From Myxococcales bacterium (GTDB taxonomy: Bacteria > Myxococcota_A > Polyangia > Polyangiales > Houyiibacteriaceae), in assembly GCA_019637115.1 (NCBI GenBank), contig JAHBWH010000010.1, positions 18,494 through 82,493 on the forward strand: a DNA stretch of 64,000 nt. Direction: 5' to 3'. Below the pieces are notes generated by a model. The model did no database searches. It had not been told where the DNA came from and worked only from the letters and a program-made list of their open reading frames with translations. A program made the position numbers and the translations under genes. Positions 36,765 to 63,594 of this stretch are shown in pieces; position 1 is the stretch's first letter, and each line of letters begins with the position of its first letter.

Positions 36765-36844
36765 CCCAGAGGCAGGGCGAGCGCCTCCGCCAAGCTCGAC
36801 ATCGCGCGGGCAGAGGCGTTGCCCGCCCTTGGGCGTGACGGCAC

Positions 36845-36965: not shown

Positions 36966-37067
36966 CGCGGGTCGGCAAGGTCACCGGGGCGCCGTTGCGG
37001 GAACGATTACAGGAGTCCCCTCCCGGCGCCTTCCACCGTGGGTCACCGCGCTGGTATCGTATCGCGG

Positions 37068-47251: not shown

Positions 47252-48247
47252 TCAGGCCGGCTTGCGGACCAAGAAGAAGTACATCGGCGTGAACGTGCCC
47301 GTCTCGCCGCCCGCGACCAGCGCGTCCGCGCCCTGGTTGAGGAAGCTGCTGACGTCGCTCGTTCCCTGCGGCGCGAGCTTCACCTTCTCCATGAAGCGCG
47401 TGAGCTTGTTCGTGAGCACGCGGCCGAGCGGCTTGCGCGGGAGCGCGAGCAGGCCCTTCTCCCGGCCCGTCAGCGGCAGATACCACGGCGTCTCGGGGCT
47501 CCCGTGGCCGGCCATGTCCTCGGTCTCCAGCACCTCGAAGCCCGCGTCGCGCAGCGCCGCGTCGACGACGCTCGTGTGTGAGAGGTCGGGCAGGCCATTG
47601 CCGATCTCGATGTCCTTCTTGATCTTCCGGTGCGTCGGGTCGCTCTCGTCGTAGCGGTCCGTGAGGCACCACTCGTAGCCTGCGAAGAGCGCGCCCGGCT
47701 TCATCGCGCGGTGCAGGCCGCGGAAGAGCTTCGTGCGGTCCGGCGCGTGGCAGCTCGCCTCGATGGTGTAGACGGCGTCGAAGCGCGCGTCCTCGAAGGG
47801 CAGCTCCATGAAGTCCGCCTTCGCGAAGCTGACGAGGTGGTCGAGGCGCTGCTTCCTCGCGTAGCGCTCGGCGCGCGCGACCTGGTAGGCGTTGTTGTTG
47901 ATCCCGACGATCTTCGCGCCGCTGCGCTTCGCGATGTGGCGCGCGGGCCCGCCGACGCCGCAGCCGACGTCAAGGACCTCCTTGCCAGGCGCGAGGCGGA
48001 GCGCGCGGTCGAGGTGGCGCTCGTGGCGCAGGAGGCTCTCCTTGAAGCCCTCCCACTTCCAGCGCGGCGCGAAGTGGAAGTGCTGGCCCCAGCCGATCTC
48101 GTAGAAGTCCGTCGCGAGGTCGTAGTACTGGTTGACGAGCGTCGTGTAGCTCGTGAGCCGCGTGTCGACGTCGCTCTGCTCGTGCAGGCCCTTGTAGGCG
48201 TCGACGGTGGACTTGAAGGACTCCTTGACGGTCTCGCGCTGCGCCAT
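47252..48247 (-). CDS. smt: sterol C-24 methyltransferase (Erg6/SMT family)
   Basis: YYDLATDFYEIGWGQHFHFAP, LDVGCGVGGP, GINNNAYQ, IEASCHAP, YEW, IEIGNGL, FTPMYFF. Confidence 0.93.
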   Translation of the reverse strand: MAQRETVKESFKSTVDAYKGLHEQSDVDTRLTSYTTLVNQYYDLATDFYEIGWGQHFHFAPRWKWEGFKESLLRHERHLDRALRLAPGKEVLDVGCGVGGPARHIAKRSGAKIVGINNNAYQVARAERYARKQRLDHLVSFAKADFMELPFEDARFDAVYTIEASCHAPDRTKLFRGLHRAMKPGALFAGYEWCLTDRYDESDPTHRKIKKDIEIGNGLPDLSHTSVVDAALRDAGFEVLETEDMAGHGSPETPWYLPLTGREKGLLALPRKPLGRVLTNKLTRFMEKVKLAPQGTSDVSSFLNQGADALVAGGETGTFTPMYFFLVRKPA

Positions 48248-48440
48248 CGTGCTTCTCGCATCGGCGCCGGGGCGCCTCGGTTGGGGAGCCCATCAGCGGG
48301 GCTCGAAGGTCGGTCGAAGGTCGGTCGGGGGTCGTGGACGAGAGCCTCGGAGGCTCGCAGGTCGTCGGGCTAACACGTGAGGCGCGCTCGCGCCTCGTGA
48401 TTTCGGCGTGGCCGGCGAACGCTGCGCCGGTCGCCGCCTC

Positions 48441-50537
48441 TCACTCCGCGGGCGGCGCAGGCGCGCGCTCCGCTGCCTCGCGCGCTTCGGGCGCGACGCC
48501 GAGGCGACGCTCGGCGAGGGCCAGCGCCCACACCGGGAAGAGCCGCCGGTAGAGGCGGTACTCGATCAGCGCGGTGCGGAAGAAGACACCCGCGAACTCC
48601 TGGATCGGGAAGTCGCCGCGCTCGTCCTGCACGGACGCGAGCCACTTCGCGCCCTTCGCGATGGGCTTCTCCTCGACGTCCTCGCCCGCGAGGAGCGTGA
48701 GCAGCGCCCACGCGGTCTGCGTGACGTGCCCGTGGCCGAGGTCCTCGTACGTGTCCGTGAGGCACGTCCGCCAATGCTCGCCCCAGCTCCCGTCGGGCCG
48801 CTGCCGCGCGCGCACGAAGGCGCACGCCTTGCGGATGGCGGGGTCGTCCGCCGACGCGCCCGCCGCGCGCAGGCCGCGCACGCCGAACATCGTCCCGTAG
48901 AGGAACCACACACCCCACGCGCCCGGCCACGAGCCGTCCGGCCGCTGCGTCTCTCGGAGCCGCGCCTCGGCGCGCGCGATCGCACCGTCGATCTCCGCGC
49001 GCATGAGCGTGGGGAAGCGCGCCCGCACCTCGCAGAGCGCGATGAGGTTCGATGCGGTGCACTCCACGTAGGAGAGCTCCGTCATCGAGTCGCCGAACAT
49101 CTCGGCGGGGTTCATCCACTCGAGGGTAAAGCGCTGCTTGCGCGCCTCGTAGCTGCCGAAGCCACCCTCGGGGTTCTGGCATTGCAGCAAGAAGCGCACG
49201 GCCGCCTCGACGGCGCGCTCGTCGAGCGTCGCCAGCGTCTCGGGCGCCTCGAGGAAGGCGCAGAGCGCCTCTGCGGTGCAGTCGCTGACCGGCCAGCCGT
49301 GCCACACACCCGCGAAGCAGAAGCCGCCCGTGGGGTCGACCCGGTATTGCTGGCGGTACTCGGCGACGCTGCCGCCGGGCGGACGCTGGATCTGCTGCGT
49401 CGCGAGCCAACCGAGACCCGTCGTCAGCGCCTCGTCGGCGAGCGCGCGCGTCTCGGGCGAGAGCGCCGGGCGCGCCGCGCTCAGCGCCTGGAGCGCGAAG
49501 CTCGTGTCCCAGGTGGCGCTCCGCGCGCCCGCGACGCGCGTGCCGTCCTGCGCGTCCTCCCAGAGCCAGCCCTCGAAGCGCTCCATCTGGCGCGCGACGT
49601 CGGGGTCGTGCTTGTCCCAGGCGTGCAGGGTGAGCGCGAAGAGCAGCCCGTTGACCGGCGAGAGGCACGTATGGTCCGTGCTGCGGAGCTCCCAGCGCAT
49701 GCGCTCGCGGATGCTCGCGAGGCACGCGCGTCGGATGGCGCCCGCGCCGGGGAGGAACGAGCGCAGCGCCTCGTAAGCGTTGACCGCCTTGTACATCGCC
49801 TCGAGCGCCGGCCCCGGCGGCGCCCAGAGGTCGCGCTCGCGCAAGAGCCCGCGCGCCGACGCGAAGTCGAGCGCCTCGTACTCGACGCGGCCGCTCTGGG
49901 CGTGGAAGGCGTAGATCTCCTGGCGGAGCTCGTCGGTGAGCGGGGTGCGCCGCGCGCGCAGCTTCAGCCCGTGCACGCTCGCCATGCCCATGTAGATGAG
50001 CCGCGTGTGGCAGTAGTAGTTGCCGGGGTGCACCGGCGAGGACGTGGGCATGAGCCACGCCTCGGGCGGCACGGCGTTGACGCCCTCCCAGCCGTAGAGG
50101 TTCATGATCGCGAGCCAGGCCTTGCCCCAGCTCGGGATCGCGCGGACGTCCTCGCGCGCGAAGAGCTCGCGCGCGAAGGCGAGCATCGGATCGTCCGCCG
50201 ACACGCCGAGGGTGCGCGCGGCCACGTACGCGAGCGTCGTCACGAAGAGCGACTCGCCCCCGTGCGGGTGCAGGCCCCAGCCCCCAGGCCGGCCGTCGGG
50301 TTGCGCGAGCTGCTCGGCGCGGAGCTGCTGCACGAGCGACGCGCGGCGGTCCGCGGAGAGCGGACGCTCCATCACGTGCATCGCGAGCGCGTATTGCGCC
50401 GCGAGCATCGGGTTCCAGACGTCCTCACCCTCCCAATGGTCGGCGGGGCGCGCGGCCTCGTCCGCGTGGCGCTCCTCGCCGCGCAGCGCGACGAGCCGCC
50501 GGACGGCGCGGTCGAGCGCCTCGCTCGTGGTCGCCAC
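48441..50537 (-). CDS. osc: 2,3-oxidosqualene cyclase
   Basis: GGWGLH, IPSWGKAWL, PPEAWL, YYCHTRLIY, HGWPVSDCTAE, YVECT, QW repeats (QRPDGSW x2); GTG directly after the HMGR stop. Confidence 0.93.
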   Translation of the reverse strand: MATTSEALDRAVRRLVALRGEERHADEAARPADHWEGEDVWNPMLAAQYALAMHVMERPLSADRRASLVQQLRAEQLAQPDGRPGGWGLHPHGGESLFVTTLAYVAARTLGVSADDPMLAFARELFAREDVRAIPSWGKAWLAIMNLYGWEGVNAVPPEAWLMPTSSPVHPGNYYCHTRLIYMGMASVHGLKLRARRTPLTDELRQEIYAFHAQSGRVEYEALDFASARGLLRERDLWAPPGPALEAMYKAVNAYEALRSFLPGAGAIRRACLASIRERMRWELRSTDHTCLSPVNGLLFALTLHAWDKHDPDVARQMERFEGWLWEDAQDGTRVAGARSATWDTSFALQALSAARPALSPETRALADEALTTGLGWLATQQIQRPPGGSVAEYRQQYRVDPTGGFCFAGVWHGWPVSDCTAEALCAFLEAPETLATLDERAVEAAVRFLLQCQNPEGGFGSYEARKQRFTLEWMNPAEMFGDSMTELSYVECTASNLIALCEVRARFPTLMRAEIDGAIARAEARLRETQRPDGSWPGAWGVWFLYGTMFGVRGLRAAGASADDPAIRKACAFVRARQRPDGSWGEHWRTCLTDTYEDLGHGHVTQTAWALLTLLAGEDVEEKPIAKGAKWLASVQDERGDFPIQEFAGVFFRTALIEYRLYRRLFPVWALALAERRLGVAPEAREAAERAPAPPAE

Positions 50538-50538
50538 G

Positions 50539-51825
<1,287 letters not shown>

Positions 51826-51953
51826 GAAATCCACTCCGGAGGAGGAAGCGGCCGCGATGGCGGCCATCGAGAGGAAGGGGCGAAGCCCCGTCGGGAGACG
51901 AAGCCTCGATCGCGGAGCGACCGAGGTGAGCGGGTGACCCTGGGTGGGTTGGC

Positions 51954-52045
51954 ACCCTGTGAGCCCTGTGAGCCCTATGAGCCGACACGCTGTGAGCCGG
52001 CACGCTATGAGCCGACACGCTGTGAGCCGACACGCTGTGGTGAGG
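51954..52045. repeat. intergenic minisatellite (two 9-mers then four 15-mers TGAGCCG(A/G)CACGCT(G/A))
   Basis: tgagccctg tgagcccta tgagccgacacgctg tgagccggcacgcta tgagccgacacgctg tgagccgacacgctg. Confidence 0.9.
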
Positions 52046-52141
52046 CGACGCCGAGTCGGGAGCGCTCGGGCTCGGGAGACTGGGATCGAAAGTTCGGAAA
52101 GAGCGAGAGAGAGGCGCCGCGCGGGGCGGCAACCCCGAAGG

Positions 52142-53290
52142 TCAGGCGGGCGAAGCGCCCTCGGAGGAGGCGGGCTTGGTGCCGATCTGGGTCAGACCGC
52201 CCTCGCCTTGGCTCGCGAGGTAGGCCTCCCATTTGCGGATCGTGACCTCTTGGAAGGCCTTCACGACCGGGTTGAGCTCCGCGAGGGGCGCGTCCCAGTG
52301 CATCTCGTAGCCCTCCTGCTCGGCCTCGACCGCGAGGCCGTCCTCACTGAGCAGGGGCTTGACCGTCAGCTCCTTCGCCGCCGGGAGGAACGCCTTCATC
52401 AGGCCCTTCGGGATCTCGAAGCTCGTGAAGGGGATGTTGAAGGCCTTGAAGTAGAAGACGAAGAAGCCGCGGGTCGTCCGCTCGTCGATCGGGAGCACGA
52501 AGAGCCAGTGCTTGATCTGATCGTCCGTGTTCGACCACTGGTAGGGGTACTCGTAGCCGAGGCGCATGTAGTTCGTGTTCACGCGCTTGCGGCTGACGAA
52601 GAGCTTGTTGAAGCGGCCCTGCCCGACCTTCGTGTCGTACTCGAGGTAGACGTTGTCGCCGACGGTCTCGTATTTGCGCAGCTCGGCGTCCTCGAAGGGT
52701 CGGAAGCGCCGGTGCAGGTAGGCGTGCGTGAAGTCCGACACGTTGTCGATGATCATCGAGTGGTGCGCCTTCCACGTGAAATCCGCGGAGATGCTTGGCC
52801 ACGCGTCGGGGCCCTCCAGCTCGGGCACGACCGGCAGCGCGACGCTCTGCGCGCGCTCGACGTCGCCCGGGAAGATCCAGATGAGGCCGTAGCGCTCCTG
52901 CACCGGGACCTCGGGCACCTTGAACTTCGGGAACTTCCGCCCGAAGAGGCTGTGCGGGATCTCGACCACGCGGCCGTCGCCGTCGTACGCCCAGCCGTGG
53001 TAGGGGCAGACGAGGTTGCAGCCGTCGACGTGGCCCGTCGTCAGCTTGAGCTGACGGTGCGCGCAGCGGTTCTCGACCGCGCGGATCTGACCGTCCTCAC
53101 CACGGAAGACCGCGATGCTCCGCTTCCAGAAGACCACCTCCTGGACACCGCCCGCCTTCACGTTCTTCGACCACTCGGCCGGGTACCAGTAGTTCGGGTC
53201 CATGCCGGCGGCGCGGACCTTCTGGCGCGTGTTCTTCGCCTCGGCGAACGACGGCGGGGGCTGGATGGGTTTGGTGTAACGGCTGCTCAT
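52142..53290 (-). CDS. Rieske non-heme iron oxygenase, probable sterol C-4 demethylase component (SdmA-like)
   Basis: CAH...CPYHGW Rieske motif; DNVSDFTHAYLH and ED mononuclear iron ligands. Specific function inferred from cluster context. Confidence 0.8.
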   Translation of the reverse strand: MSSRYTKPIQPPPSFAEAKNTRQKVRAAGMDPNYWYPAEWSKNVKAGGVQEVVFWKRSIAVFRGEDGQIRAVENRCAHRQLKLTTGHVDGCNLVCPYHGWAYDGDGRVVEIPHSLFGRKFPKFKVPEVPVQERYGLIWIFPGDVERAQSVALPVVPELEGPDAWPSISADFTWKAHHSMIIDNVSDFTHAYLHRRFRPFEDAELRKYETVGDNVYLEYDTKVGQGRFNKLFVSRKRVNTNYMRLGYEYPYQWSNTDDQIKHWLFVLPIDERTTRGFFVFYFKAFNIPFTSFEIPKGLMKAFLPAAKELTVKPLLSEDGLAVEAEQEGYEMHWDAPLAELNPVVKAFQEVTIRKWEAYLASQGEGGLTQIGTKPASSEGASPA

Positions 53291-53307
53291 GGGGAACTCG
53301 GCTCGCT

Positions 53308-54405
53308 TCAGGCGTGGATGGCTACGCCGTCCGGCGCGCGACGGACCGGCGCGCGGTCCTCGGGGGACTTGGCCTCGGGGTGCGTGATCGCGCCCCGGCT
53401 CCAGTGGAACGCGTAGGCCTCGGCGAAGGCATCCCGCATCGAGCTCGGGCGGAAGCCGAGCTCGTTCTGCGCCTTCGAGGTGTCGGCGTGGCGGCGCAGG
53501 CGGAGGCGCCGGATGGCGCCGGGGGTGAGCAGCTGCTGGCGCTTGGGCGCGAAGCGCGTGAGCAGGAAGCTCGAGATCTCGGCCGCGGGCAGGAGCGCCG
53601 CCGCCGGGACGCGGAAGCGCGGACGCGGCGCGCCCGTGATCTCCTCGAGCATGTCGAAGATGTGATCGAAGTCGAGGAACTGGGTCGCGACGATATACTT
53701 CTGGCCAGTGCGCCCGCGCTCCATCGCGCGCACGTGGCCGTCGACGATGTCGCGCGCCGCGACGAACTCGAAGCCGCCCGGCGAGTAGACGTTGAGCTCG
53801 CGGTTGGCGAACTTGCAGATCGTCGTGCCCATGCGCGAGGGCAGGTAGTCGTGGCCGCCGATGATCGCGCAGCTCGTGACGATGAGCGCGTCGAGCCCCT
53901 CGACGCAGGCCTTGAGCAGCTCGTGCTCCTGCAGGACCTTGCTGCGCTCGTAGGGCATCGCGCGGTGGTAAGGGTAAAACTGCCGCGTCTCGTCCGCAGG
54001 CTTCGACGTCTCGTCGAGGTCGTAGCCGACCGCCGAGAACGAGCTCGTGAGCACGAAGCGCTCGACGCCGGTCTCCTTGGCGGCCTGCATCAGGTAGCGC
54101 GCGCCGAGCACGTTCGTCTCGTAGATCGTGCGGCGGTGCTCGGCGTCGCCGTCGATCGTCGAGACCATCGACGCGACGTGGTAGACGCGGCGGCAGCCCT
54201 CGACGGCCTGGATGAGCGAGCCGCGATCGCGCAGATCGCCGTAGGCCTTCTCCACGCCGTGGAGGCCGTCGACGGCCTCCTCGTTCTCGCCGCGGCGCAG
54301 GAGGACACGCACGCGCTCGCCCTCCTCGACGAGGCGGTGCAGGAGGTTCGCGCCGAGGTGGCCGGTCGCGCCGGTGATCAGGGTGGGGGCGTCCTTGGCA
54401 GGCAT
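53308..54405 (-). CDS. extended SDR NAD-dependent epimerase/dehydrogenase, probable sterol C-4 decarboxylase/reductase (SdmB-like)
   Basis: ITGATGHLG, TSS, YERSK; TGATG-coupled to the upstream fusion gene. Confidence 0.8.
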   Translation of the reverse strand: MPAKDAPTLITGATGHLGANLLHRLVEEGERVRVLLRRGENEEAVDGLHGVEKAYGDLRDRGSLIQAVEGCRRVYHVASMVSTIDGDAEHRRTIYETNVLGARYLMQAAKETGVERFVLTSSFSAVGYDLDETSKPADETRQFYPYHRAMPYERSKVLQEHELLKACVEGLDALIVTSCAIIGGHDYLPSRMGTTICKFANRELNVYSPGGFEFVAARDIVDGHVRAMERGRTGQKYIVATQFLDFDHIFDMLEEITGAPRPRFRVPAAALLPAAEISSFLLTRFAPKRQQLLTPGAIRRLRLRRHADTSKAQNELGFRPSSMRDAFAEAYAFHWSRGAITHPEAKSPEDRAPVRRAPDGVAIHA

Positions 54406-57400
54406 CAGTGGACCGTCGCTTCGTGGGTGGAGCTCTCGAGCGCGGGCATGCGCCAGAGGGCGTCGTAACGTTGGCGGAGCGCCTCGTCCTTCGAGGCGTT
54501 CGAGAGGCAGTCGGCGATGAGCTCCTCGACCTCGGCCCGCGCGATCTTCACGGGGTTGCCCGCCGTGAACATCGCGTCGTTGCCTCGCGCGTGGACGAGC
54601 GTGCGCACGGCCATCCACAGCGGGAGCAGGCAGAAGAGGCGCATCGCGCCGTGCTCGGCCGGGATGGCGAGCACGTACTCGAGCGCGCGATCGAGGCGCG
54701 CCTGCGCGGTGTCGAAGAGCGGCGCGACCGCCGCGTGCGCGCGCTCGCGGACGGCGGGGTCGACGAGCGCGTCGATGGCGAGCCCCTGCAGGTTCGCGCT
54801 CGTGCGCGGGATGAAGCTGACGCGGCGCTCGCGGTCGTCGGTGATGTCCTTGAGGATGTTCACGAGCTGGAGGCCGACGCCGAAGGCCTCGGCCTCGGTG
54901 CGGAGCGCGTGCTCGGTGTCGGTGCCCGCGGCGCCCATGGCCTCGACGAAGAGGTCGGTGAGCATGTGGCCGACGGTGCCCGCGACGAAGTAGCAATAGC
55001 GCTCGAGATCTTCGACGGTGTAGAGCGCCGTGTAGCCGTCGTCGCCCGCCGTGCGGTGCGAGTAGAGCTGCATGCCGCGCGTCATCTCCGCGACCCACCG
55101 CGTCGCCTTCGTCTGCATGCCCTTGGGCAGGCCCCGGAAGACGCGGAGCACGGTGCCGAGGTGCTGGCAGAGGTCGTTCTCGACCTGGTTGCCCTCCACG
55201 CCGCGGAACTGATCCTCGAAGCGGCGCACGACCTCGTCGTCGGGGCTCGCGTAGAGCGCCGCGAGGAAGGTCTCGTAGCGGGCGTCGCGCTCCTCCACGG
55301 TGAAGAAGGCGTTGTCCTCGATCGTGTCGGCGATGCGACAGAGCAGGTAGCCGCAGGTGACGGCGGTACGCAGGTCGCCGGGGAGCATCTCGATCGGCCG
55401 CGCGAAGGAGCGCGAGACCGCGAGCAGGCTCTCGCGACAATAGGCCACGTCCTCGGAGCTCGCCTTCGCGGCGCGGCGCCCCTTGGCGGGCATCACGCGC
55501 GTAGCGCGCTTGTCGCGGTAGAGGTGCAGCGCGTCGGAGGCCTCGGCCCCGAGCGCGACCGACTCGCCGAGCGACGCGAGCCCGCGCTCGATGGCCTCCC
55601 AATGCGGGGCCTCGCTCGCGAGCAGCGCGCGGCAGACGATCGCCGTCGTGCGCGCCCCGCCGAAGCTGCCGTCCTCGCGCTGGCCGGCGACGAGCACCCG
55701 CACCGCCCGCCGCAGGCGCGGGTGGAAAGGAGGCAGCCCCGAGGCGTGGAGCAGCTCGAGCGCGAGCGCGGTGCCCATGAGCCCGCCCTCGAACGCGCCG
55801 TCGCTCCGCTGCGCGCGGCGGAGCTGGTCGGCGAAGCGCGCCCACGCGCCGTCGATGACGCCGGGCAAGAGCCCGGGGAAGCGGGCGCGGGCCCGGCGCA
55901 TGGCGACCGCCGCGTCGCGGCGCGCGCCGAGGTTGCGCGTCGCGTCGGCGGCCTCGACGAGCTGAGGCACGAGGCGCACCGCGTCGTCGAGCCGATGCTG
56001 CGCGACGGCGCCCTCGAGCTCGAGCGCGAGGCGGCTCGCCGGCTCGGCGGGCGCGAGATCGGCGGCGTCCGTGACGCGGGCGAGCAGCGCGTCGACGTCG
56101 ACGCTCACGCTGGGCGTCGCGCCCTCGGTGGGCGAGGGCAGCACGGGCGCCGGCGGCGTGATCCCAGCACCACGCAGCGGGTGGAGGCGCGTGCCCACGC
56201 GGCGCCACTTCTCGCGGAGGCGGCGGGGGACGAGCGTCGCGCCCGGCCACTGCGCCCACTCGGCGAAGCGCGCGAGCTCGTGCGGGAGCCGGCGCAGCGC
56301 CTTGTCCGCGACGACCTGCTGCGTCGTGTCCTGGACCGCGCGGCGCGCGACGTTGACGAACGCCCCGCCGAATTGGTCGAGGCGGACCTCGTCACCCGCG
56401 AGGATGCGCATCGTGCGCACGCGCTCGGCGGGCTCGTCGCGCCAGGTGTCGAAGACGGCGCTGCGGATCGCGACCGCGCTCTCGTCCTCGCGCATGAAGA
56501 CCTGGAAGAGCGCGTTGACGAGCAGCTCGGAGACGTAGCTCTGCGGCTCGCGCGTCTGGCGGTACTCCTCGAGCGTCGCGCTCGAGAGCAGCGTGTCTGT
56601 GTCCTTGAGCGCCACCGTGATGCCCGTCGCCGTGAGCGGGTGGCAGAAGCCGACGGCGTCGCCGACGAGCGCGACGCGGCCCGCGCCGTAGAAGGTGCGC
56701 GGGAGGAAGCGGTTGCTCGCCCAGATGATCTTGTCCTGCTCGAGCGCGCGCTTGTACGCGGGGCGGAGCGTCTCGGGGAAACGCGAGGCGAAGGCGTCCC
56801 AGAGGTAACGCGCGTCGCGGCGCGCCCCCGGGGTGCCTGCCGGGATGTCGACGCACGCGCGGACCCGATCCTCGGCGATCCGGTAGAGCAGGATGGCGCC
56901 CGGCCCGCCGAGCAGCACGTGGCCATAGCCCTCGAAGGGCATCTCGATGCCGTGCAGCTCGATGCCCGCCATGTGCGAGATGAGCTCGGCCTCGTCCTCC
57001 TGCCGCAGGCTCTTGCGCACGACGCTCGAGCGGCCGTCGGCGGCGATGATGCGCCCCGCGGCGATCGTGTGCTCGCGGCCGCCGTGGGTGAAGGTGACCT
57101 TCTCGCCCGCGACGCCCGAGACGCGCGCGTGCTCGAGGTAGGTGACGCCGGGCGTCGCGGCGGCGGCGCTGCGGAGCGACTCCACGAGGTCGCCGTGCTC
57201 GCACGAGAAGCCGACGGTCCCGTCCGCGTAGTCGAGCTGGACGGCCTCCGAGCCGTCGTCGGGGAAGACGGCGAAGCCGTAGCAGGGGGTGTGCTTGGAG
57301 GTCGCCGCGTGCGGGAAGAGGCCGTACTTGCGGAGGACGTCGCCGCCGGTCGGGTGAATCCACTCACCCGCGAAGCGCGAGGACGCGCGGGGGTTCGCCT

Positions 57401-57518
57401 CGAGGAGCAGGACGGCGGCGCCCTGACGGGCGTATCCGACGGCGGCGGCGGATCCGGCGGGGCCCCCGCCGACGACGATTACGTCGTAGCTCGGCTCGAT
57501 GGTCGCGTTTTCGCTCAT
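54405..57518 (-). CDS. fusion: squalene monooxygenase + degenerate QW-repeat barrel + squalene/phytoene synthase
   Basis: N: GGGPAG, AGEWIHPTG, ADGRSS, GDAVGFCHPLTATG. Middle: QRSDGAF, QREDGSFG. C: VSRSF, YLLCRIADTIED, YCYFVAGTVG, LQLVNILKDITDD. Confidence 0.88.
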   Translation of the reverse strand: MSENATIEPSYDVIVVGGGPAGSAAAVGYARQGAAVLLLEANPRASSRFAGEWIHPTGGDVLRKYGLFPHAATSKHTPCYGFAVFPDDGSEAVQLDYADGTVGFSCEHGDLVESLRSAAAATPGVTYLEHARVSGVAGEKVTFTHGGREHTIAAGRIIAADGRSSVVRKSLRQEDEAELISHMAGIELHGIEMPFEGYGHVLLGGPGAILLYRIAEDRVRACVDIPAGTPGARRDARYLWDAFASRFPETLRPAYKRALEQDKIIWASNRFLPRTFYGAGRVALVGDAVGFCHPLTATGITVALKDTDTLLSSATLEEYRQTREPQSYVSELLVNALFQVFMREDESAVAIRSAVFDTWRDEPAERVRTMRILAGDEVRLDQFGGAFVNVARRAVQDTTQQVVADKALRRLPHELARFAEWAQWPGATLVPRRLREKWRRVGTRLHPLRGAGITPPAPVLPSPTEGATPSVSVDVDALLARVTDAADLAPAEPASRLALELEGAVAQHRLDDAVRLVPQLVEAADATRNLGARRDAAVAMRRARARFPGLLPGVIDGAWARFADQLRRAQRSDGAFEGGLMGTALALELLHASGLPPFHPRLRRAVRVLVAGQREDGSFGGARTTAIVCRALLASEAPHWEAIERGLASLGESVALGAEASDALHLYRDKRATRVMPAKGRRAAKASSEDVAYCRESLLAVSRSFARPIEMLPGDLRTAVTCGYLLCRIADTIEDNAFFTVEERDARYETFLAALYASPDDEVVRRFEDQFRGVEGNQVENDLCQHLGTVLRVFRGLPKGMQTKATRWVAEMTRGMQLYSHRTAGDDGYTALYTVEDLERYCYFVAGTVGHMLTDLFVEAMGAAGTDTEHALRTEAEAFGVGLQLVNILKDITDDRERRVSFIPRTSANLQGLAIDALVDPAVRERAHAAVAPLFDTAQARLDRALEYVLAIPAEHGAMRLFCLLPLWMAVRTLVHARGNDAMFTAGNPVKIARAEVEELIADCLSNASKDEALRQRYDALWRMPALESSTHEATVH

Positions 57519-57849
57519 GATTTCTCCCGTCGACTTCGATGGGCACAAGCTCGAAGGCCTGTGGCGCGCGCCCCTCCGGACGGACTCGATCCCGGGCTGG
57601 GGTAGCAAGGGCGGGGGCGGACAGGGTCCCCAATCGGGTGAGCGGGGCGCGCCAGCAGGCGAGCCGTCGACCCTCCCAGGTGAATCGGGTTCTAGCGAGC
57701 GCGCCTCACGAAGGCGTGTTCCTTAGCGGTTACGGTAGGTTACGCGCCAGAAACATGTTCGCCGGGGCTAGGAGGGGCCCCGCGATCGTGTCAGCGCCTC
57801 GGCTCTCGGCGAGGCGTGTGGCTACGAGCCTTTCGTGTACGCTGCGAGC

Positions 57850-58230
57850 ATGACGCATGACCGCCTCATCCCATGCGCTGCTTGTGGGGCCCACGTCCGC
57901 GCGGCGGAGCCGTGCCCCTTCTGCGGCGGAGAGGGCGCGCACGACGGGTCGGCGCCCCGCGGCACCCGCGGCGGCGTGGTCGCCGCTTCGCTCCTGGCCC
58001 TCTCGGCGTGCGCGAGCCCGAGCCCCGAGCTCCCGCCCGAGCACGACACGGGCGACGAGGTCGTCGTGGAGACGCTGCCCTCACCGGAGGACGACGAAGA
58101 CCGGATCGTCGACGGAGAGCCGCCCGCCGAGGAGCTCGTCGGACCGCCCGAACCTCCGCCCGCGGCGGCCTACGGCGGCCCGCCCGACGACATGATCATG
58201 CAGCCGATGTACGGCATCGCGCCGGAATGA
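57850..58230 (+). CDS. putative splicease substrate: zinc ribbon + lipobox + acidic/Pro linker + two XYG motifs
   Basis: CAACGAHV...CPFC, LLALSAC, AAAYGGPP, QPMYGIAPE; ATGA overlap with the radical SAM gene. Confidence 0.8.
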   Translation: MTHDRLIPCAACGAHVRAAEPCPFCGGEGAHDGSAPRGTRGGVVAASLLALSACASPSPELPPEHDTGDEVVVETLPSPEDDEDRIVDGEPPAEELVGPPEPPPAAAYGGPPDDMIMQPMYGIAPE

Positions 58231-59525
58231 GCGCCGAGGTGCCGTCCGCGCTCGTGCGCCACACGAGCCACGGCGACGGACCGCGCTACGTGGTCTGGGA
58301 GATCACGCTCCGCTGCGATCTCGGCTGCAAACACTGCGGCTCGCGCGCTGGCCACGCGCGGGACGACGAGCTCTCGACCGACGAATGTCTGGACGTCGTC
58401 GGGCAGCTCCACGAGCTCGGCGTCGCGGAGGTCACGCTCATCGGCGGGGAAGCGTACCTCCGCGAGGATTGGGATCTCATCGCGCGCGCGATCACCGACC
58501 GCGGGATGCGCTGCGGCATCACGACGGGCGGGCGCGGGCTCGACGACGATCGCGTGCGCCGCGCCGTCGACGCGGGCGTCTCGACGATCTCGGTCTCGAT
58601 CGACGGGCTCGAGCGCACGCACGATCTGCAGCGAGGCGCGACGGGATCGTTCCGCGCGGCGCTCGACGCCTGCGAGCGGATCGCGAAGAGCTCGATGCGG
58701 CTCGCGACGAATACGCAGATCAACCGGCTCTCGATGCCCGAGCTCGTCGCGCTCGCCGACCTGCTGCACGAGGTCGGCTCGAAGGCGTGGCAGATCCAGC
58801 TCACCGTGCCGATGGGGCGCGCCGCCGATCGGGCGGACCTCCTGCTGCAGCCGCACGATCTGCTCGAGCTCTTCCCGCTGCTCGTCTGGATCAAGCGCGA
58901 GAAGCTCACGCCGCGCGACATCCGGCTCTTCCCCGGCAACAACATCGGGTACTTCGGGCCCTACGAGCAGGAGCTTCGCTACGGGGGCGCGAGCGGCACG
59001 CACTGGACCTCCTGCGGCGCGGGGCGCGCGTGCCTCGGGCTCGAGTCCGACGGCAAGCTCAAGGGTTGCCCTTCGTTGCCGACCGATCGCTACGGCGGCG
59101 GCCTCGTGCGGGAGACGCCGATCGCCGAGCTGATCCGGCGCGAGCCCATCGCACACCTCGGCGCCCGCACCGCGGCGGATCTCTGGGGGTATTGCGGGAC
59201 CTGCTACTACGCCGACGTCTGCCGCGCCGGCTGCAGCTGGACCGGACACGTGCTCATGGGCCGGCCGGGCAACAACCCCTACTGCATCCATCGCCAGCTC
59301 GACCACGAGCGACGAGGCCTGCGCGAGCGCCTCGTGCGCGTCGAGACCGCCCCGGGCGTGCCCTTCGACCACGGCCGATTCACGACCGAGCTCGAGCCGC
59401 TCGGGCCCGCCCCCGAGCGCGCGACGATCCTCGGCGTCGACCTCGCCGAGGTGCTCGCGATGGGGCGTGAGCGGGCTGGCGCGTTCGACGCGCCGGAGAG
59501 CAAACGGCGGCTCCGCGTCGTCTGA
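58227..59525 (+). CDS. radical SAM/SPASM enzyme, PlpX/PcpX-type tyramine splicease
   Basis: VWEITLRCDLGCKHCGSRAG, VTLIGGEAYLREDW, TTGG, WQIQLTVPMG, PGNNIGYFGPYE, CGAG...KGCPSLP, LWGYCGTCYYADVCRAGCSWT...GNNPYC. Confidence 0.88.
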   Translation: MSAEVPSALVRHTSHGDGPRYVVWEITLRCDLGCKHCGSRAGHARDDELSTDECLDVVGQLHELGVAEVTLIGGEAYLREDWDLIARAITDRGMRCGITTGGRGLDDDRVRRAVDAGVSTISVSIDGLERTHDLQRGATGSFRAALDACERIAKSSMRLATNTQINRLSMPELVALADLLHEVGSKAWQIQLTVPMGRAADRADLLLQPHDLLELFPLLVWIKREKLTPRDIRLFPGNNIGYFGPYEQELRYGGASGTHWTSCGAGRACLGLESDGKLKGCPSLPTDRYGGGLVRETPIAELIRREPIAHLGARTAADLWGYCGTCYYADVCRAGCSWTGHVLMGRPGNNPYCIHRQLDHERRGLRERLVRVETAPGVPFDHGRFTTELEPLGPAPERATILGVDLAEVLAMGRERAGAFDAPESKRRLRVV

Positions 59526-59679
59526 AGGTCAGAGCTCGAGTCGGAGCGCCGGGAGGCTGCCGTCCGCGATGGGGCGTGAGCGGGCAGGCGCGTTCGATGT
59601 GCCGGAGAGCCAACGGCGGCTCCGCGTCGTTTGAGGTCAGAGCTCGAGTCGGAGCGCCGGGAGGCTGCCGTCCGCGATG
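59456..59679. repeat. ~109-bp tandem duplication spanning both convergent stop codons
   Basis: Unit starting cgcgatggggcgtgagcggg at 59456 and 59565; a few substitutions and one indel. Confidence 0.95.
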
Positions 59680-60989
59680 CCGCCGCCGATCGTGAGCAGA
59701 CCGACGCGGGCCGCGTCGTTCGTCACGAGCGCCGGCGCGCGCGCGACGTCGTCGTCCCAGCCGCCCAAGGGGAGCAGCTCCGCGTCCGATTGTGCGAGGC
59801 AACCGAGCGCCTCTGAGGCCGAGGCCGTGACCTCGACCGCCTCGAGGGAGACGCGCGTCAGCCCCGCGACGCCGAGCGCGCCGACCGAGAGCAGCACGCC
59901 GATCCGGGGGTGGTCGACGAGGCTCACGCCGCGCAGGACGTTCGGCCCGCTCGGGTCGAGCACCTGGACTCCGTCGCCCATCTCGACCGCGCCCGCTTCG
60001 CCGAGCAGCGTGGTCCGAAGGACCGTGCGCGCGACCTCGACGCCCTCGAGGCGCACGTCCGCCGACGCGACCGAGGCGACGCCGACCGCGCCGTTTTCGT
60101 CGGCGCGCCCGCCCGTCCAGGTGACGTCGCTGCTGCGCTGGATCCACGCGCCGCCGAAGCGATGACCGCGGACCACGAGGTCGCGATGAGCCCCGTGGCT
60201 CTCGTGGTGGAGCAGCCCGAGGTCCGCCGCGGAGATCTCGACGTCGCTCGTCTCGAGGCGCGCGTCGCCGACCGCCACGAGCCCATAGGCCGGGAGCAGC
60301 TGCCGCCCCGGCCGGACATCGTCGATGACGAGCCCCTCGAGCGTCGCTTCGCTCGCCTCGACGTAGATCGCGGTCCCGACGAGCTCGCGGACCGAGCCGC
60401 CTCGCCAGACGAGCGTCGAGTTCGCGACGATGGCGCCCCACGGGCCCACCTGGACGGCGTCGAGCTCCACGATCGACACGTCCCGAGCGTCCAGCACCGC
60501 GAGCCCGATGGCGCTCTCCGTCGGCTCCGCCAAGGGCGGGAAGCTCGCGGGGTCGTCCACGCCGACGACGCGAACGCGCGAGACGACGACATCGTCCGCG
60601 CGCACCGCGAGGCCGACCCCGCGTCGCACGGAGATCTCCACGTCCTCGACGCGCGCGCCCGCGCCGAGCGCGCGGACGCCATGGCCCGCGTCCACCACGA
60701 CCCGGAGGCTCCGCAGCGCGGCCCCCGCGGCGAGCGTGACCACGGCCTCGTCCCCCACGAGCTCGCTGCCCGCGACGCCCTCGAGCGCGACCCGCTCGGG
60801 CACTCGGAGCGTGGCGCCCTCGACGCGGCACGGGCCCACGCGGACGACGGCGCCCGCCGAGGCGCGGTCGAGCGCCTCCTGGAGCGCTTCGGCGTCGCAG
60901 ATGCCGTCATCCCCACACGCGGCGAGGAGCCCCGCGACGACCAACGCCGCGGGGAGGAAGGGGCTCGGACCGATGCGACGCGGACGCAT
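59637..60989 (-). CDS. right-handed beta-helix lipoprotein
   Basis: LLAAC lipobox; ALQEALDRASAGAVVRVG; repeated G/V/I-rich strand pattern. Confidence 0.8.
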   Translation of the reverse strand: MRPRRIGPSPFLPAALVVAGLLAACGDDGICDAEALQEALDRASAGAVVRVGPCRVEGATLRVPERVALEGVAGSELVGDEAVVTLAAGAALRSLRVVVDAGHGVRALGAGARVEDVEISVRRGVGLAVRADDVVVSRVRVVGVDDPASFPPLAEPTESAIGLAVLDARDVSIVELDAVQVGPWGAIVANSTLVWRGGSVRELVGTAIYVEASEATLEGLVIDDVRPGRQLLPAYGLVAVGDARLETSDVEISAADLGLLHHESHGAHRDLVVRGHRFGGAWIQRSSDVTWTGGRADENGAVGVASVASADVRLEGVEVARTVLRTTLLGEAGAVEMGDGVQVLDPSGPNVLRGVSLVDHPRIGVLLSVGALGVAGLTRVSLEAVEVTASASEALGCLAQSDAELLPLGGWDDDVARAPALVTNDAARVGLLTIGGGIADGSLPALRLEL

Positions 60990-61136: not shown

Positions 61137-63200
61137 TCAACGCTCGAGGGGCGGCGGCGTCGGCAGCACGCTCGTCTCGATGTCGCGGCCGTTCTCCGAG
61201 AACCAGACCTGCGCCGAGACCTTGCGCAGGTCGTACCCCTCCGCGGCGACGTTCACCCCGACGAGGCTGCGCGTGACCACCCCGCCGCGGAGCTCGAGAT
61301 CCCCGACCGCCTCGTTCGGCTCCTCGTGCTCGTCGAGCCCGCGCGCGACCTGCGCGCCGATGAGCTCGTTGCCCTCGAGCCGGAAGCGCTCCAGCACCAC
61401 CTGCGCGCCGTCGTACACGCCGAGACCGATGCCTCCGACGAACGACGCGCAACGGTCGACCTCGTCGAGGCAGCCCGACCGGTAGCTGTTGCTGATCACG
61501 ACATCGCGGAGCTCGATCGACGTGTCGTCGTTGAACGCGAAGAGGCCACCGGTCTGGCTCTGGTCGAGGTGGACGCGCTCGAGCGAGACCCGCGAGCGCT
61601 CCGCCTGCAGCCCCGCGCCGAAGAGCGTCTCGGGGTGCGCGTGGGTGTAGTAGGTCGTGAGATCCGTCCCGCGGACGTCGGCGAGCAGCGCCATCACGCC
61701 GTACCCGTCGCAGCCCTCGACCCGCACGCGCGCGAACTCGAGCTCCGCCTCGTAGGCGACGAGCCCGAAGGCATGGTCTTCGGGTCGCAGCGGCGTCGGA
61801 CGGCCTTCGACGCCGACGACGCGCGTGTCCTCGAGCCGGCCGCTCGCGCCCAGATGGAGCTGAACCCCCACCCGCAGGCCTTGATGGACGACGGTGCGCG
61901 AGAGCTCGAGGTGCGCGCCCTCCCCGCGCGCGACGACGCCGAACTCGTGCCATGCGTCGTCGGCGTTCGCGACGAAGAGATCCTCCGCGCGCAGCCGCCC
62001 GCCCGCGACGTCGACGCCGAGGTTCGTGATCGCCCCGACCACCACCCGGCGCATCGAGCACGTGGCGCCGGGGAGCACCGTGACGCCGATGCTCGCGCCC
62101 TTCACGTCGCCGACGAGCGTGTCCTCGAGCTCGAGCGACGATCCCTCGTGCTCGACGAGGATCCCCGCGTCGTTCGTCGCAGAGACGAAGAGCCTCCGCG
62201 CGCGCGCGCGGCCGCCGCCGGCCACCTCGACGCCATGACCACGGAGCGCCCCCGCCGGATGCGACTGAGCGCCGATCACCACGTCCTCGAGCTCGAGCTC
62301 ACCGCCGAAGACGCCGATCGCCGCGACGTCGTGTCCGCGCAGCTCGGCGCGACGGAGCGAGAGGTGCCCCGTCGTGTGCACCAACACCCCGACGTCGAGC
62401 TCCCCCGCGATCCCCGGCTCGAGCATCCGCGTCACGAGCTCCTCGGCCTCCACGCGACCGGCGACCCAGAGCCCGGTCCCGGGGACGTCGAGCACGACGA
62501 CCCCACGCAGGCTCGCCTCTCCCCCTTCGCGGACGATGATCCCATGCTCCGGCCCCGTCACGGAGATCCCGTCGAGGACCACGGCGGCCGACGTGACGAC
62601 GATCGCCCCGGGCGCGTCGCCCGCGCGCGCGACGACGCTCGTCTCGGCCGCGCAGGCGCCGTAGAGACGCAGCGGCCGATCGAGGACGAGTCCGTCGGTC
62701 TCGTAGCGACCGGGCGCGAGCACGAGCGCCGAGCCCGAGGCCGCCGCGGCGAGCGCGACGTCGAGCTCGCCGAAGGGCGCGCTCTCCGAACCGTCACCTC
62801 CGCTCGCGCCGGCCCGGACGTGGACCACGACGCCGTCGGGCGCAGGGGGATCCTCGCAGGCCCGCCCCGCCGGTCGGCACGCCGCCTCGCTCGGCACGTG
62901 GAGCGCGTGCGCGTCGCAGCGTCGAGGGTCGTCGCCGCCGAAGGGCGCGCAGATCAGCGCTTCGCCGAGGTCCACGGGGATCCAACCGGCCGGACAGGCG
63001 CCGTCCACGCGGAAGCTCGGCGCGGTCGGCAGCTCCGCCGGCGCGACCTCCGGGGGCGTCGCGCCCGCGTCGGCATCTTCAGGTCCACCGTCGGACGTCG
63101 CCGGAGGCTCGCCCCCGCCGCACGCGGCTATGACGAGGAAGAGCGCCACGCTCCGTCCAAGTCGGTTCCTGCGGAGCGGGAGACGAGACGGCGGCGCCAC
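61137..63200 (-). CDS. right-handed beta-helix lipoprotein (DUF1565-like motif)
   Basis: VIAAC lipobox; VHVRAGASGGDGSESAPFG...ALAAA...LAPGRY; repetitive strands. Start uncertain. Confidence 0.8.
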   Translation of the reverse strand: MAPPSRLPLRRNRLGRSVALFLVIAACGGGEPPATSDGGPEDADAGATPPEVAPAELPTAPSFRVDGACPAGWIPVDLGEALICAPFGGDDPRRCDAHALHVPSEAACRPAGRACEDPPAPDGVVVHVRAGASGGDGSESAPFGELDVALAAAASGSALVLAPGRYETDGLVLDRPLRLYGACAAETSVVARAGDAPGAIVVTSAAVVLDGISVTGPEHGIIVREGGEASLRGVVVLDVPGTGLWVAGRVEAEELVTRMLEPGIAGELDVGVLVHTTGHLSLRRAELRGHDVAAIGVFGGELELEDVVIGAQSHPAGALRGHGVEVAGGGRARARRLFVSATNDAGILVEHEGSSLELEDTLVGDVKGASIGVTVLPGATCSMRRVVVGAITNLGVDVAGGRLRAEDLFVANADDAWHEFGVVARGEGAHLELSRTVVHQGLRVGVQLHLGASGRLEDTRVVGVEGRPTPLRPEDHAFGLVAYEAELEFARVRVEGCDGYGVMALLADVRGTDLTTYYTHAHPETLFGAGLQAERSRVSLERVHLDQSQTGGLFAFNDDTSIELRDVVISNSYRSGCLDEVDRCASFVGGIGLGVYDGAQVVLERFRLEGNELIGAQVARGLDEHEEPNEAVGDLELRGGVVTRSLVGVNVAAEGYDLRKVSAQVWFSENGRDIETSVLPTPPPLER

Positions 63201-63594
63201 CGCAGATCGGTACGTCGCCGCGCGACCATGGTCAACGCGCGCCGAGGCGGAGGCGCCCTGCCACGTGCTCACGACGGCGCCCATCGCGCAGCAGGCGACG
63301 TGAGCTGGCCTGCGCAGCGCTGCGCCCCAGCAGCGCCGTGTTGGGTCACCGCGCTCAACCGCGGCACAGCGAATGCCACTCACCACGTTCGCGACCCGAA
63401 TCTAATCGAGTTAATCGATAGCCAGTCCACGTATGAGGACACCCGCTCGCACGGCAACATGCTGGTTTCCACAAAACGCAAACCAAGTTCCACCGCGCCC
63501 GACGGGCGCCGACCAATAACTCGCATGGCCCCTCGGCGGCTCCCATAACGCCGCCACCGCCGGCGATGACCGAACGCCGAAGAGGGAGTGAACC

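Follow-up and report, generated by a model that had tools for sequence, protein, structure and literature searches.

A candidate two-gene tyramine-splicease system of Myxococcota whose putative substrate combines a zinc ribbon with a lipoprotein-like signal segment

In a 64,000-nucleotide stretch of DNA from a Myxococcales bacterium (the window, in which all positions below are numbered from the first letter), we found a pair of overlapping genes that probably forms a binary tyramine-splicease system, that is, one lacking a Y protein, and that belongs to a Myxococcota-wide clade. In this reading, to which we assign a probability of about 70%, a zinc ribbon followed by a lipoprotein signal peptide would serve as the leader, and the product would be a lipopeptide carrying keto-amides. 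The basis for it lies in the gene pair, its motifs, their conservation, the co-occurrence of the two genes and the modelled interface between their products.

Results

The substrate gene, P0001, occupies 57850..58230 on the + strand (ATG at 57850, TGA at 58228-58230) and is translated into 126 aa. The splicease-like radical SAM/SPASM enzyme gene, P0002 (58227..59525, +; 432 aa), begins at ATG 58227 within an ATGA overlap, sharing its start with the P0001 stop codon. Coordinates and translations confirmed the ATGA-coupled pair reported in the initial annotation, and the features that had been read in the small protein, a CxxCxxH...CPFC ribbon, an internal LSAC, an acidic Pro-rich stretch and AYG and MYG motifs, were all present. 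P0001 matched no Pfam or NCBIfam family; there were only sub-threshold zinc-finger matches, no Nif11/NHLP match, and no GYF, TonB-C or other Pfam domain.

The zinc ribbon (57874..57924, +) follows the motif C9-x2-C12-x2-H15 ... C22-P-F-C25 and is supported by conservation, the AF2 model and the modelled interface. In an alignment of 66 substrate sequences the four Cys residues (C9, C12, C22 and C25) are invariant, a count that is affected by the choice of the rows taken from loci, which were picked on a CxxC..CxxC pattern; H15 is at least 90% conserved. The AF2 monomer has ribbon strands at residues 6-8 and 15-17 (pLDDT 77-86) and a helix at 42-52, in a protein that is otherwise largely disordered (mean pLDDT 64.5). 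Only 11 residues lie between C25 and R37, where a signal-peptide-like segment begins (57958..58011, +), supported by the same three kinds of evidence. It comprises R37/R40, a hydrophobic helix at G41-L51 and a lipobox-like L51-S-A-C54; what follows R37/R40 reads GGVVAASLLALSAC, the lipobox-like element included. The positive n-region, the h-region and the lipobox ending in an invariant Cys that characterize lipoprotein precursors are thus found in P0001. The signal peptide of such a precursor is at the extreme N terminus, whereas here some 36 residues with a folded ribbon come first, an arrangement that is atypical of lipoproteins.

The position of the ribbon ahead of the hydrophobic segment is odd for a cleaved signal peptide, and it invites an alternative in which the enzyme-substrate pair is the same while P0001 is an uncleaved bitopic inner-membrane protein and not a lipoprotein. 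The ribbon would then stay in the cytoplasm with a cytoplasmic partner of its own, connected through one TM helix to a periplasmic tail. There is a precedent for this layout in GltJ, whose N-terminal 4-Cys ZnR is cytosolic and is joined by a single TM helix to a flexible region in the periplasm (PMC11135422, accessible part), although P0001 itself has no GYF or other cytoplasmic domain. Also, a strict lipobox pattern is found in only 32 of the 66 substrates and a relaxed one in 59. On the other hand, C54, which closes the hydrophobic run and played no part in the selection of sequences, is invariant (66/66), and the residue before it is A, G or S in 64/66; a plain membrane anchor needs neither, so these features count against the bitopic layout, which we consider unlikely. 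In 52 of the 66 sequences the uncharged run ahead of the Cys is 12 residues or longer, and the distance from ribbon to Cys ranges from 20 to 53 residues.

A further argument comes from a search with a profile of the ribbon-to-lipobox part only against 1.84 billion representatives. Among the best 150 matches, 127 were single-module proteins, and 121 of these contained YG in the tail, which had not been profiled; within the same set, 323 of 348 tail Tyr residues were followed by Gly. A module that appears to occur almost only on proteins with YG tails fits a dedicated leader better than a membrane anchor of the GltJ type.

The pairing of enzyme and ribbon/YG protein is not due to chance. Among 80 related loci, which span two enzyme clades, a ribbon/YG protein adjoins the enzyme in 71: the ribbon ORF is directly upstream in 59, every one of which has YG in its tail (59/59), and in 12 others the ORF is downstream, divergent or has a degenerate ribbon. 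In L090 and L091, two loci that branch at the base of the window's clade, an NHLP-like precursor with an IYG site replaces the ribbon protein. No ribbon/YG gene was found in the remaining 7, three of which (L042, L071 and L108) lack DNA on one side. Among cultured relatives, Lujinxingia vulgaris TMQ2 has a pair homologous to this one, at locus L084. No other gene family was conserved beside the enzyme in the 80 loci, and no gene flanking the pair in the window recurs there. These data support, at the level of sequence, the assignment of the P0001 type as a conserved, co-inherited substrate candidate in whose tail it is the YG sites that are conserved.

The host genome is high in GC and contains many spurious open frames, and P0001 has no named family, so one could suppose that the neighborhood is fortuitous, the small ORF being an unrelated membrane protein or no gene at all and the true substrate lying elsewhere. 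This notion is already contradicted by the co-occurrence just described, by relatives of P0001 in the protein collection with E values down to 4e-46, and by the complex model presented below, and we regard it as having almost no chance of being correct. A six-frame pattern scan of the genome, which followed the earlier suggestion to look for additional substrates acting in trans, points the same way. It returned 15 frames with a ribbon, a hydrophobic segment and a Cys, four of them with YG; C190 and C376, both ribbon and YG frames, were rejected as trans substrates, being junk or unrelated. The only two sensible ribbon, lipobox and YG proteins each lie beside their own enzyme copy, and no extra substrate emerged. 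The second of these enzyme copies (C6) is 51% identical to P0002 and has its own ribbon/YG protein upstream.

P0002 contains the family motifs that had been claimed for it. The radical SAM cluster motif C30-x3-C34-x2-C37 (58314..58337, +) and the seven Cys of the SPASM region (C263, C281, C323, C326, C332, C336 and C353; 59013..59285, +), arranged as C-x12-G-x4-C ... C-x2-C-x5-C-x3-C ... C, are invariant in 76/76 aligned relatives, and the protein scores 77.8 bits against Pfam Radical_SAM. Its best family matches place it beside the splicease families. By far the nearest NCBIfam models are TIGR04103, which we take to be the same family as the InterPro class named for PlpX (PMC11002830), at 479.8 bits and TIGR03913 at 433.7 bits, about threefold above any other SPASM family (the next scores 153.7). 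Both values are below the curated cutoffs (725 and 591.75 bits, respectively), and P0002 is therefore a member of neither family. The same holds for 20 of 20 sampled clade members, which score 444-538 bits against TIGR04103 and 349-509 bits against TIGR03913. A profile search found no TIGR04103 member above the cutoff in the host genome or in 14 control genomes, so the enzyme tree contains no PlpX-type or other characterized splicease sequence. From the family scores, we read P0002 as representing a sister clade of the known spliceases. The P0002 clade includes at least 7834 protein clusters at E<=1e-30 and is carried by 104 of 401 sampled Myxococcota genomes. In public annotation, the enzymes are named only "radical SAM protein" and their partners "hypothetical protein". 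Likewise, an ESM Atlas search with P0001 returned only Myxococcota "hypothetical protein" clusters, with a recognition value of 2178, under the mark of 2300.

The tail of P0001 downstream from C54 is acidic and Pro-rich, and its only two Tyr residues, Y108 and Y121, are each followed by Gly, for which the probability by chance is about 0.01 (14 Gly in 126 residues). The AYG site (A107-Y108-G109; 58168..58176, +) lies in PPAAAYGGPP, which is kept in the closest relatives, and the MYG site (M120-Y121-G122; 58207..58215, +), four residues from the C terminus, is kept as QP[ML]YGIAP. Across 60 substrate tails, 145 of 155 Tyr residues precede Gly, a residue whose frequency is 0.117. A logo of these 145 sites has P at -2 in 94, at +3 in 110 and at +4 in 104, for a consensus of P-x-Y-G-x-P-P.

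The tyramine-excision chemistry that we propose for P0002 is deduced from its family likeness and from this site motif. SPASM enzymes of closely related families can differ in chemistry. Given this variety and the scores below both cutoffs in P0002 and all 20 tested clade members, the enzyme could in principle act on the same Tyr-Gly sites through other radical chemistry, such as Tyr cross-linking, C-H functionalization or epimerization. We think this quite improbable. The P-x-Y-G-x-P context equals that of the PlpXY splice tags printed in Table 1 of PMC10533398, as far as the accessible text of that paper goes; these are of the GPIRPLYGLPI type, the PlpA tag being PIRPLYGLPI, and the myxobacterial sites resemble the latter. 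MYG itself is a natural PlpXY/PcpX site (PMC11414181; also the accessible part of PMC10533398). In addition, Tyr followed by Gly is the sole conserved tail feature of the substrates, as it is in described spliceotides (PMC11414181, and PMC11626197 as far as available), and the threefold margin of the two nearest families over the rest of the SPASM enzymes also favors tyramine excision.

We modelled the complex of P0001 with P0002. The ipSAE was 0.82 (0.80-0.84 between runs), compared with 0.00-0.01 for three controls. In calibration, 58 of 80 solved complexes attained the ipSAE mark, as did 2 of 110 mismatched pairs; these counts hold only roughly for this model because our own alignments and riding ligands were used. 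Runs shared at least 66% of their contacts, with a partner pLDDT of 52-54. The model puts MYG on the barrel by the SAM motif, with both the ribbon and the hydrophobic helix lying on the enzyme surface. The confident interface includes ribbon residues 4, 6-8, 12-15 and 23, and residues 40-48 and 51-52 also contribute to the modelled interface, although a hydrophobic helix may be buried for generic reasons. Residues 112-126 enter the barrel, where they contact enzyme residues 21-25, 68-72, 95-99, 119-122, 158-164 and 187-194; G122 touches residues 23, 70, 72 and 99, beside the invariant G73-G74-E75. In the best run, MYG was the only one of the two sites that the confident interface included. The suggestion that the zinc ribbon serves for recognition thus gains support from the model and from the near restriction of the module to proteins with YG tails. 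Published AF2 models of binary spliceases place XYG in the active site and an alpha-helix of the leader on the enzyme (PMC11414181), a picture that our predicted complex matches.

Discussion

For the sequence of steps, the lipidation and the role of the product, we infer the following. The cytoplasmic enzyme would be made from the same message as its substrate and right after it. It would bind the ribbon and the hydrophobic helix of the signal peptide, which would act jointly as the leader, while the disordered tail is threaded across the barrel so that a P-x-Y-G-x-P site comes to lie beside SAM. Excision of a tyramine equivalent (C8H9NO, -135 Da) would leave an alpha-keto-beta-amino amide at M120-Y121-G122 and probably also at A107-Y108-G109. 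After splicing, Sec would export the protein, C54 would receive its lipid, and signal peptidase II would cleave the chain, taking off the ribbon along with the signal peptide; the pair would then need no dedicated gene for a peptidase or an exporter. A similar order of events is seen with anaerobic sulfatase-maturating enzymes (AtsB/anSME), cytoplasmic radical SAM/SPASM enzymes that modify a protein with a signal peptide before its export; their chemistry (formylglycine) and substrates are different, and the analogy extends to the order of events only. The expected product, about 73 residues long, is a short lipopeptide with an acidic, Pro-rich sequence; it would be anchored in the envelope and bear one or two electrophilic keto-amides. 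By analogy, its most likely role would be that of a tethered trap for Ser or Cys proteases; the activities behind this idea belong to other spliceotides (PMC11626197, in its accessible part). Every testable part of the initial interpretation was supported; its "displayed protease inhibitor" remains an inference by analogy.

Two types of characterized systems are closest. The type I systems of Pleurocapsa (PlpA/PlpX/PlpY and PcpAXY) share with our pair a radical SAM/SPASM enzyme, with TIGR04103 as the best HMM match, a substrate encoded beside it and X-Tyr-Gly in P-x-Y-G-x-P. In contrast to them, P0002 scores 480 against a cutoff of 725, and the pair has no Y protein (RRE), no Nif11/NHLP leader and no epimerase, peptidase or exporter gene; its substrate instead combines a zinc ribbon with a lipoprotein-like signal. 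In lacking a Y protein, the pair agrees with the published binary systems, namely, the type II pairs RhaX/RhaA, RcsX/RcsA and RasX/RasA of Rheinheimera (PMC11414181). Their leader helix and active-site XYG (PMC11414181) would correspond to helix 40-52 and MYG in our modelled interface. Type II leaders, compared here without their enzyme sequences, are soluble peptides in RiPP loci with multiple BGCs and with peptidase and exporter genes nearby, according to the accessible part of PMC11626197, whereas the helix in P0001 forms the hydrophobic core of a signal peptide and follows a zinc ribbon.

Two other comparisons are more distant. TIGR03913, the GDL motif peptide-associated radical SAM/SPASM maturase family, is the second-best match, yet all 21 tested enzymes fall below its cutoff and the GDL partner peptides differ. 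ZnR membrane proteins of the GltJ/AgmX type resemble P0001 in their N-terminal 4-Cys ribbon, single hydrophobic helix and disordered extracytoplasmic region (PMC11135422, accessible part); P0001 differs in having no GYF domain, linker or TonB-C and in having an invariant lipobox-like Cys and a YG tail.

Taken jointly, the observations allow a broader proposal, which we hold tentatively and regard as possible although it is less probable than not. It is a RiPP-like pathway that would borrow the lipoprotein route and for this reason do without its own leader peptidase and exporter. By gripping the signal-peptide helix of the ribbon-containing leader, the splicease would hold back export until the tail had been spliced; Sec, Lgt and signal peptidase II would then export the protein, lipidate it and strip the leader, giving lipopeptides and lipoproteins that are anchored in the envelope and bear keto-amides. 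Among relatives, each protein would carry from 1 to at least 5 backbone keto-amide warheads, and the result would be a tethered surface layer for protease trapping or covalent capture in about a quarter of the sampled Myxococcota. In a paralogous "C-Y-G" subtype, splicing would take place at the very cysteine that carries the lipid.

To our knowledge, spliceases are the only route to beta-amino, alpha-keto residues in ribosomal chains. The characterized substrates in the literature that we compared, as far as its text was available, are soluble peptides with classic leaders. If our reading is true, backbone splicing also decorates cell envelope lipoproteins in a large clade, a signal peptide and a zinc ribbon can act as a RiPP leader, and the general secretion machinery can stand in for pathway-specific processing. 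Protein engineering would gain compact two-gene systems that act on a short tag flanked by prolines, and there would be a testable hypothesis for the way in which predatory or social bacteria protect their surface against proteases. A full-text search found no literature joining a splicease or spliceotide with a zinc ribbon, lipoprotein, Sandaracinus, Deltaproteobacteria or myxobacteria, and nothing relevant on TIGR03913, TIGR04103 or "GDL motif"; paper supplements and the survey of Scott et al., Chem 2022, which reportedly classifies splicease types, were outside its scope.

The surroundings of the pair are plain. Upstream is a divergent squalene epoxidase/synthase fusion gene and downstream a convergent gene with no Pfam family. 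Inspection of the flanks bore out the earlier remark that no Nif11 leader, PlpY/RRE, peptidase or exporter gene adjoins the pair, and no NHLP leader or epimerase gene was found there either. Genome-wide, the PqqD family PF05402, which a truncated RRE could escape, had no match at E<=0.01 in this 98%-complete genome. A scan that is uninformative for this host organism showed no sigma-70-like promoter around the pair and one terminator-like site upstream of it (57492-57505, + strand). One RNA library run (X19, share 0.11) contained a 261-nt contig identical to 57929-58189, inside P0001; the other pieces of X19 are 20-40 nt long and come from other records, and since DNA carry-over is possible, the contig was not counted as transcription. 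Tandem Repeats Finder reported nothing at 57000-60500, and a separate repeat search around the pair detected a 108/109-bp duplication.

Gene pair and enzyme family

Translation of the high-GC window DNA bore out the overlapping gene pair that the initial annotation had placed at 57850-59525: a putative substrate ORF of 126 residues runs on the plus strand from an ATG at 57850 to a TGA at 58230, and the ATG of a 432-residue enzyme ORF (58227 to 59525, plus strand) overlaps this stop. The features claimed for the smaller protein are also present. Its N terminus reads C9-A-A-C12-G-A-H15...C22-P-F-C25 (the CxxCxxH...CPFC ribbon); R37 and R40 are followed by a hydrophobic run, G41-L51, that leads into the lipobox-like L-S-A-C54; and the tail is proline rich and acidic. 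The sole two tyrosines lie in A107-Y108-G109 and M120-Y121-G122, and for a 126-residue protein containing 14 Gly, the probability that Gly follows both by chance is ~0.01. Since the upstream neighbor, a squalene epoxidase/squalene synthase fusion, is divergent and the downstream neighbor, which has no Pfam family, is convergent, the pair stands alone.

The enzyme carries the family motifs attributed to it, namely, the radical SAM C30-x3-C34-x2-C37 (CxxxCxxC) and seven SPASM cysteines; Pfam detects Radical_SAM only. Its best NCBIfam match is TIGR04103 ("nif11-class peptide radical SAM maturase 3"; 479.8 bits versus a cutoff of 725), which we take to correspond to the PlpX subclass, followed by TIGR03913 ("GDL motif peptide-associated radical SAM/SPASM maturase"; 433.7 bits versus a cutoff of 591.75); the third-ranked family scores no more than 153.7 bits. 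PMC11002830 describes PlpX as prototypic of a SPASM subclass that removes tyramine at Xaa-Tyr-Gly sites. Because 20 further clade members also score below both cutoffs (444 to 538 bits for TIGR04103 and 349 to 509 bits for TIGR03913; 0 of 20 above), the clade is, judged by these profile scores, sister to the two models and inside neither. It comprises at least 7834 clusters at 90% identity with E ≤ 1e-30, which source records label just "radical SAM protein." A relative (E ≤ 1e-90) was detected in 104 of the 401 sampled genomes of the phylum (91 of the 340 high-quality ones) and in 76 of the 255 genera.

Tyrosine-glycine sites and pairing across related loci

We gathered 80 related loci, nearly all from Myxococcota-labeled MAGs, plus Lujinxingia vulgaris TMQ2. 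In 59 of them, a scripted scan identified an ORF with the CxxC...CxxC pattern whose end lies immediately ahead of the enzyme gene, and all 59 ORFs have at least one YG beyond the ribbon. Twelve of the remaining 21 loci hold ribbon/YG proteins elsewhere in the locus; substrates lie downstream of the enzyme, often two to three in tandem, in L095, L099, L101, L102, L103, L104, L106, L109, and L113, one gene further upstream in L086, and divergently in L100, and that of L092 has a degenerate ribbon. No ribbon/YG gene was found in 7 of the 80 loci, 3 of which (L042, L071, and L108) are missing DNA on one side. No further gene family is repeatedly found next to the enzyme in the 80 loci, and the genes that flank the pair in the window do not reappear there.

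Two loci have an NHLP-like precursor in place of the ribbon protein (L090:2294-2956 and L091:1840-2958); these precursors are helical, carry a hydrophobic I-Y-G site, and precede enzymes that are basal in the clade of the window's enzyme; one of the two records is labeled Brevundimonas. The L049, L050, and L053 substrates (e.g., L049:2297-2980) have ~100 extra, folded-domain-like residues after a single YG, with no Pfam family above the cutoff, so that in some relatives the splice site would sit in a linker between lipid anchor and domain.

In the tails of 60 substrates, Gly follows 145 of 155 Tyr, versus a Gly frequency of 0.117. Pro occupies position -2 at 94 of these 145 sites, +3 at 110, and +4 at 104; L, V, E, or A is found at -1 and I, A, L, or V after the Gly, and the final site is mostly 3 to 9 residues from the C terminus. 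The same P-x-Y-G-x-P core is present in the splice tags used with PlpXY (GPIRPLYGLPI and variants, in Table 1 of PMC10533398), and the natural PlpXY sites mentioned in that paper include MYG and LYG.

In a tree of 76 enzymes (quick IQ-TREE run, LG+G4, SH-aLRT support only, midpoint root), the window's enzyme falls in a 54-member clade with upstream substrates. A second splicease-like gene of the same genome (contig C6:10662-11795, minus strand; 51% identity to the window's copy) falls in a 22-member clade, in which substrates are downstream or of a "C-Y-G" subtype. The ribbon partner upstream of the C6 enzyme (locus L014:6922-7290, minus strand) has a tail rich in Cys and Asp, and its lipobox Cys is followed by Y-G (..LMAC-YG-AAYP..); splicing at C-Y-G, if it occurs, would act on the very cysteine predicted to be lipidated. 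Trans substrates elsewhere in the genome had been suggested, and a six-frame pattern scan returned no additional sensible ribbon-lipobox-YG protein beyond the two pairs. Other genomes do contain substrates remote from the enzyme gene: an enzyme lies within 1.5 kb in 7 of 19 loci retrieved via the substrate, and all 5 genomes with "orphan" substrates carry two to three clade enzymes elsewhere.

The ribbon-to-Cys module as a candidate leader

Alignment of 66 substrates revealed five invariant columns, the four ribbon cysteines and C54, with H15 nearly invariant; the loci rows were picked by their ribbon pattern, which makes the ribbon invariance partly circular, and C54 played no part in the selection. 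A, G, or S directly precedes C54 in 64 of the 66 substrates, an uncharged run of at least 12 residues lies ahead of it in 52, and a strict lipobox pattern fits 32, a relaxed one 59. A profile of the ribbon-to-Cys part (alignment A3, 71 positions, with the tail outside the profile), searched against 1.84 billion representatives, matched 3520 proteins at E ≤ 0.001 and 215 at E ≤ 1e-10. The best 150 matches comprise 127 small proteins, each with a single N-terminal module, and 23 others that are long with multiple ribbons or differ in some other way. A tail YG is found in 121 of these 127 single-module proteins, with Gly after 323 of their 348 tail Tyr; the six proteins lacking YG appear end clipped. 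The module is thus essentially dedicated to YG-tail proteins, as expected of a coevolved leader.

The substrate monomer was modeled with short strands at 6-8 and 15-17 and a helix at 42-52, being otherwise disordered. The substrate-enzyme complex, modeled from two alignments (substrate and enzyme) with SAM and three 4Fe-4S clusters, gave an ipSAE of 0.82 (runs of 0.82, 0.80, and 0.84) versus 0.01, 0.00, and 0.00 for controls, to be read against a calibration, only approximate here given our own alignments and ligands, in which 58 of 80 solved complexes and 2 of 110 mismatched pairs reached the tool's mark. The runs share at least 66% of contacts, with a partner pLDDT of 52 to 54. The confident interface includes ribbon residues 4, 6-8, 12-15, and 23, in keeping with the earlier suggestion that the zinc ribbon may serve for recognition, as well as helix residues 40-48 and 51-52 and the MYG region, 112-126; the AYG site lies outside it in the best run. 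H15 contacts the nearly invariant F243 of the enzyme, G122 contacts residues 23, 70, 72, and 99, and further contacts of the C-terminal peptide are with 119-122, 158-164, and 187-194. Going by the usual radical SAM fold, the residues contacted by G122 and the C-terminal peptide are barrel-strand ends around the invariant G73-G74-E75 SAM motif. With MYG at the barrel and the helix on the enzyme, the modeled complex resembles published AF2 splicease models, in which XYG occupies the active center and the leader helix fills the Y-protein site of ternary systems (PMC11414181).

Proposed mechanism and relation to known systems

We propose that the cassette works in the manner of known spliceotide systems, as a binary splicease system whose leader would be the zinc ribbon plus the signal peptide. 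By family, the enzyme is cytoplasmic and oxygen sensitive. It would have to act before the substrate tail crosses the membrane, an order that translational coupling and the enzyme's predicted hold on the signal-peptide helix would favor. Sec export, lipidation, and signal peptidase II cleavage would be expected next, given the positive-inside layout and the invariant lipobox-like Cys. The main rival to this export and lipidation half is that the protein persists as an uncleaved bitopic protein resembling GltJ, as described in PMC11135422. Cleavage by signal peptidase II would discard the ribbon, and this route would account for the lack of an accompanying peptidase or exporter gene in all 80 loci. 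The lipidated, cleaved product would be a Pro-rich acidic lipopeptide bearing keto-amide groups. By analogy, its most likely role is that of a tethered protease trap, because published spliceotides are described as inhibiting Ser and Cys proteases only in the spliced form (PMC11626197).

Type I spliceotide systems (PlpA/PlpX/PlpY-like) have a Y protein and Nif11 or NHLP leaders, whereas the window's pair is without these; type II systems, which are Y-less, have two components, as does the cassette. As summarized in citing papers (PMC10533398 and PMC10849128), the survey of Scott et al. covers 27 characterized and 939 predicted systems from 189 genera, and it may already include this clade. A literature search, with this survey outside its reach, found no paper linking spliceases to zinc ribbons or lipoproteins. 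The chemistry of the cassette is probably already known, and the cassette class is common; the unusual part is the leader and export logic, which is directly testable.

Genomic surroundings and public sequencing runs

The final 70 bases of the radical SAM gene and the 3' end of its convergent neighbor fall within a tandem duplication of 108/109 bp (59456-59679; copies 93 to 100% alike), which doubles the junction between the two genes. The duplication is polymorphic: in a DNA contig from public run X4, the second copy is missing and 59525 abuts 59634, while the two copies are bridged within 122-nt contigs from runs X1 and X5. Two downstream convergent genes on the minus strand (59637-60989 and 61137-63386) encode N-terminal lipobox-like signals (..LLAAC.. 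and ..VIAAC.., respectively), and neither is kept beside the cassette in relatives; the second protein weakly matches a right-handed beta-helix family (E of 3e-4, below the cutoff).

The window also holds a sterol-type biosynthesis cluster on the minus strand (47252-57608), with genes for a sterol methyltransferase (47252-48292), a squalene/oxidosqualene cyclase (48441-50687), a 3-beta-HSD/epimerase-like protein (about 53311-54330), and the 1067-aa squalene epoxidase-squalene synthase fusion (54405-57608). On the plus strand, 36765-38381 encodes a member of the fatty-acid-hydroxylase family.

At least half of the sampled words from 57600-59800 occur in 12 runs from five studies (sludge, bioreactor, and biofilm metagenomes), and the assembly may derive from one of these runs. 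A 27,968-nt contig of X1 shows 4 differences over 57602-59555, and a 3,322-nt contig of X5 shows 10; these long contigs confirm that the window's organism or a close strain is present in those metagenomes.
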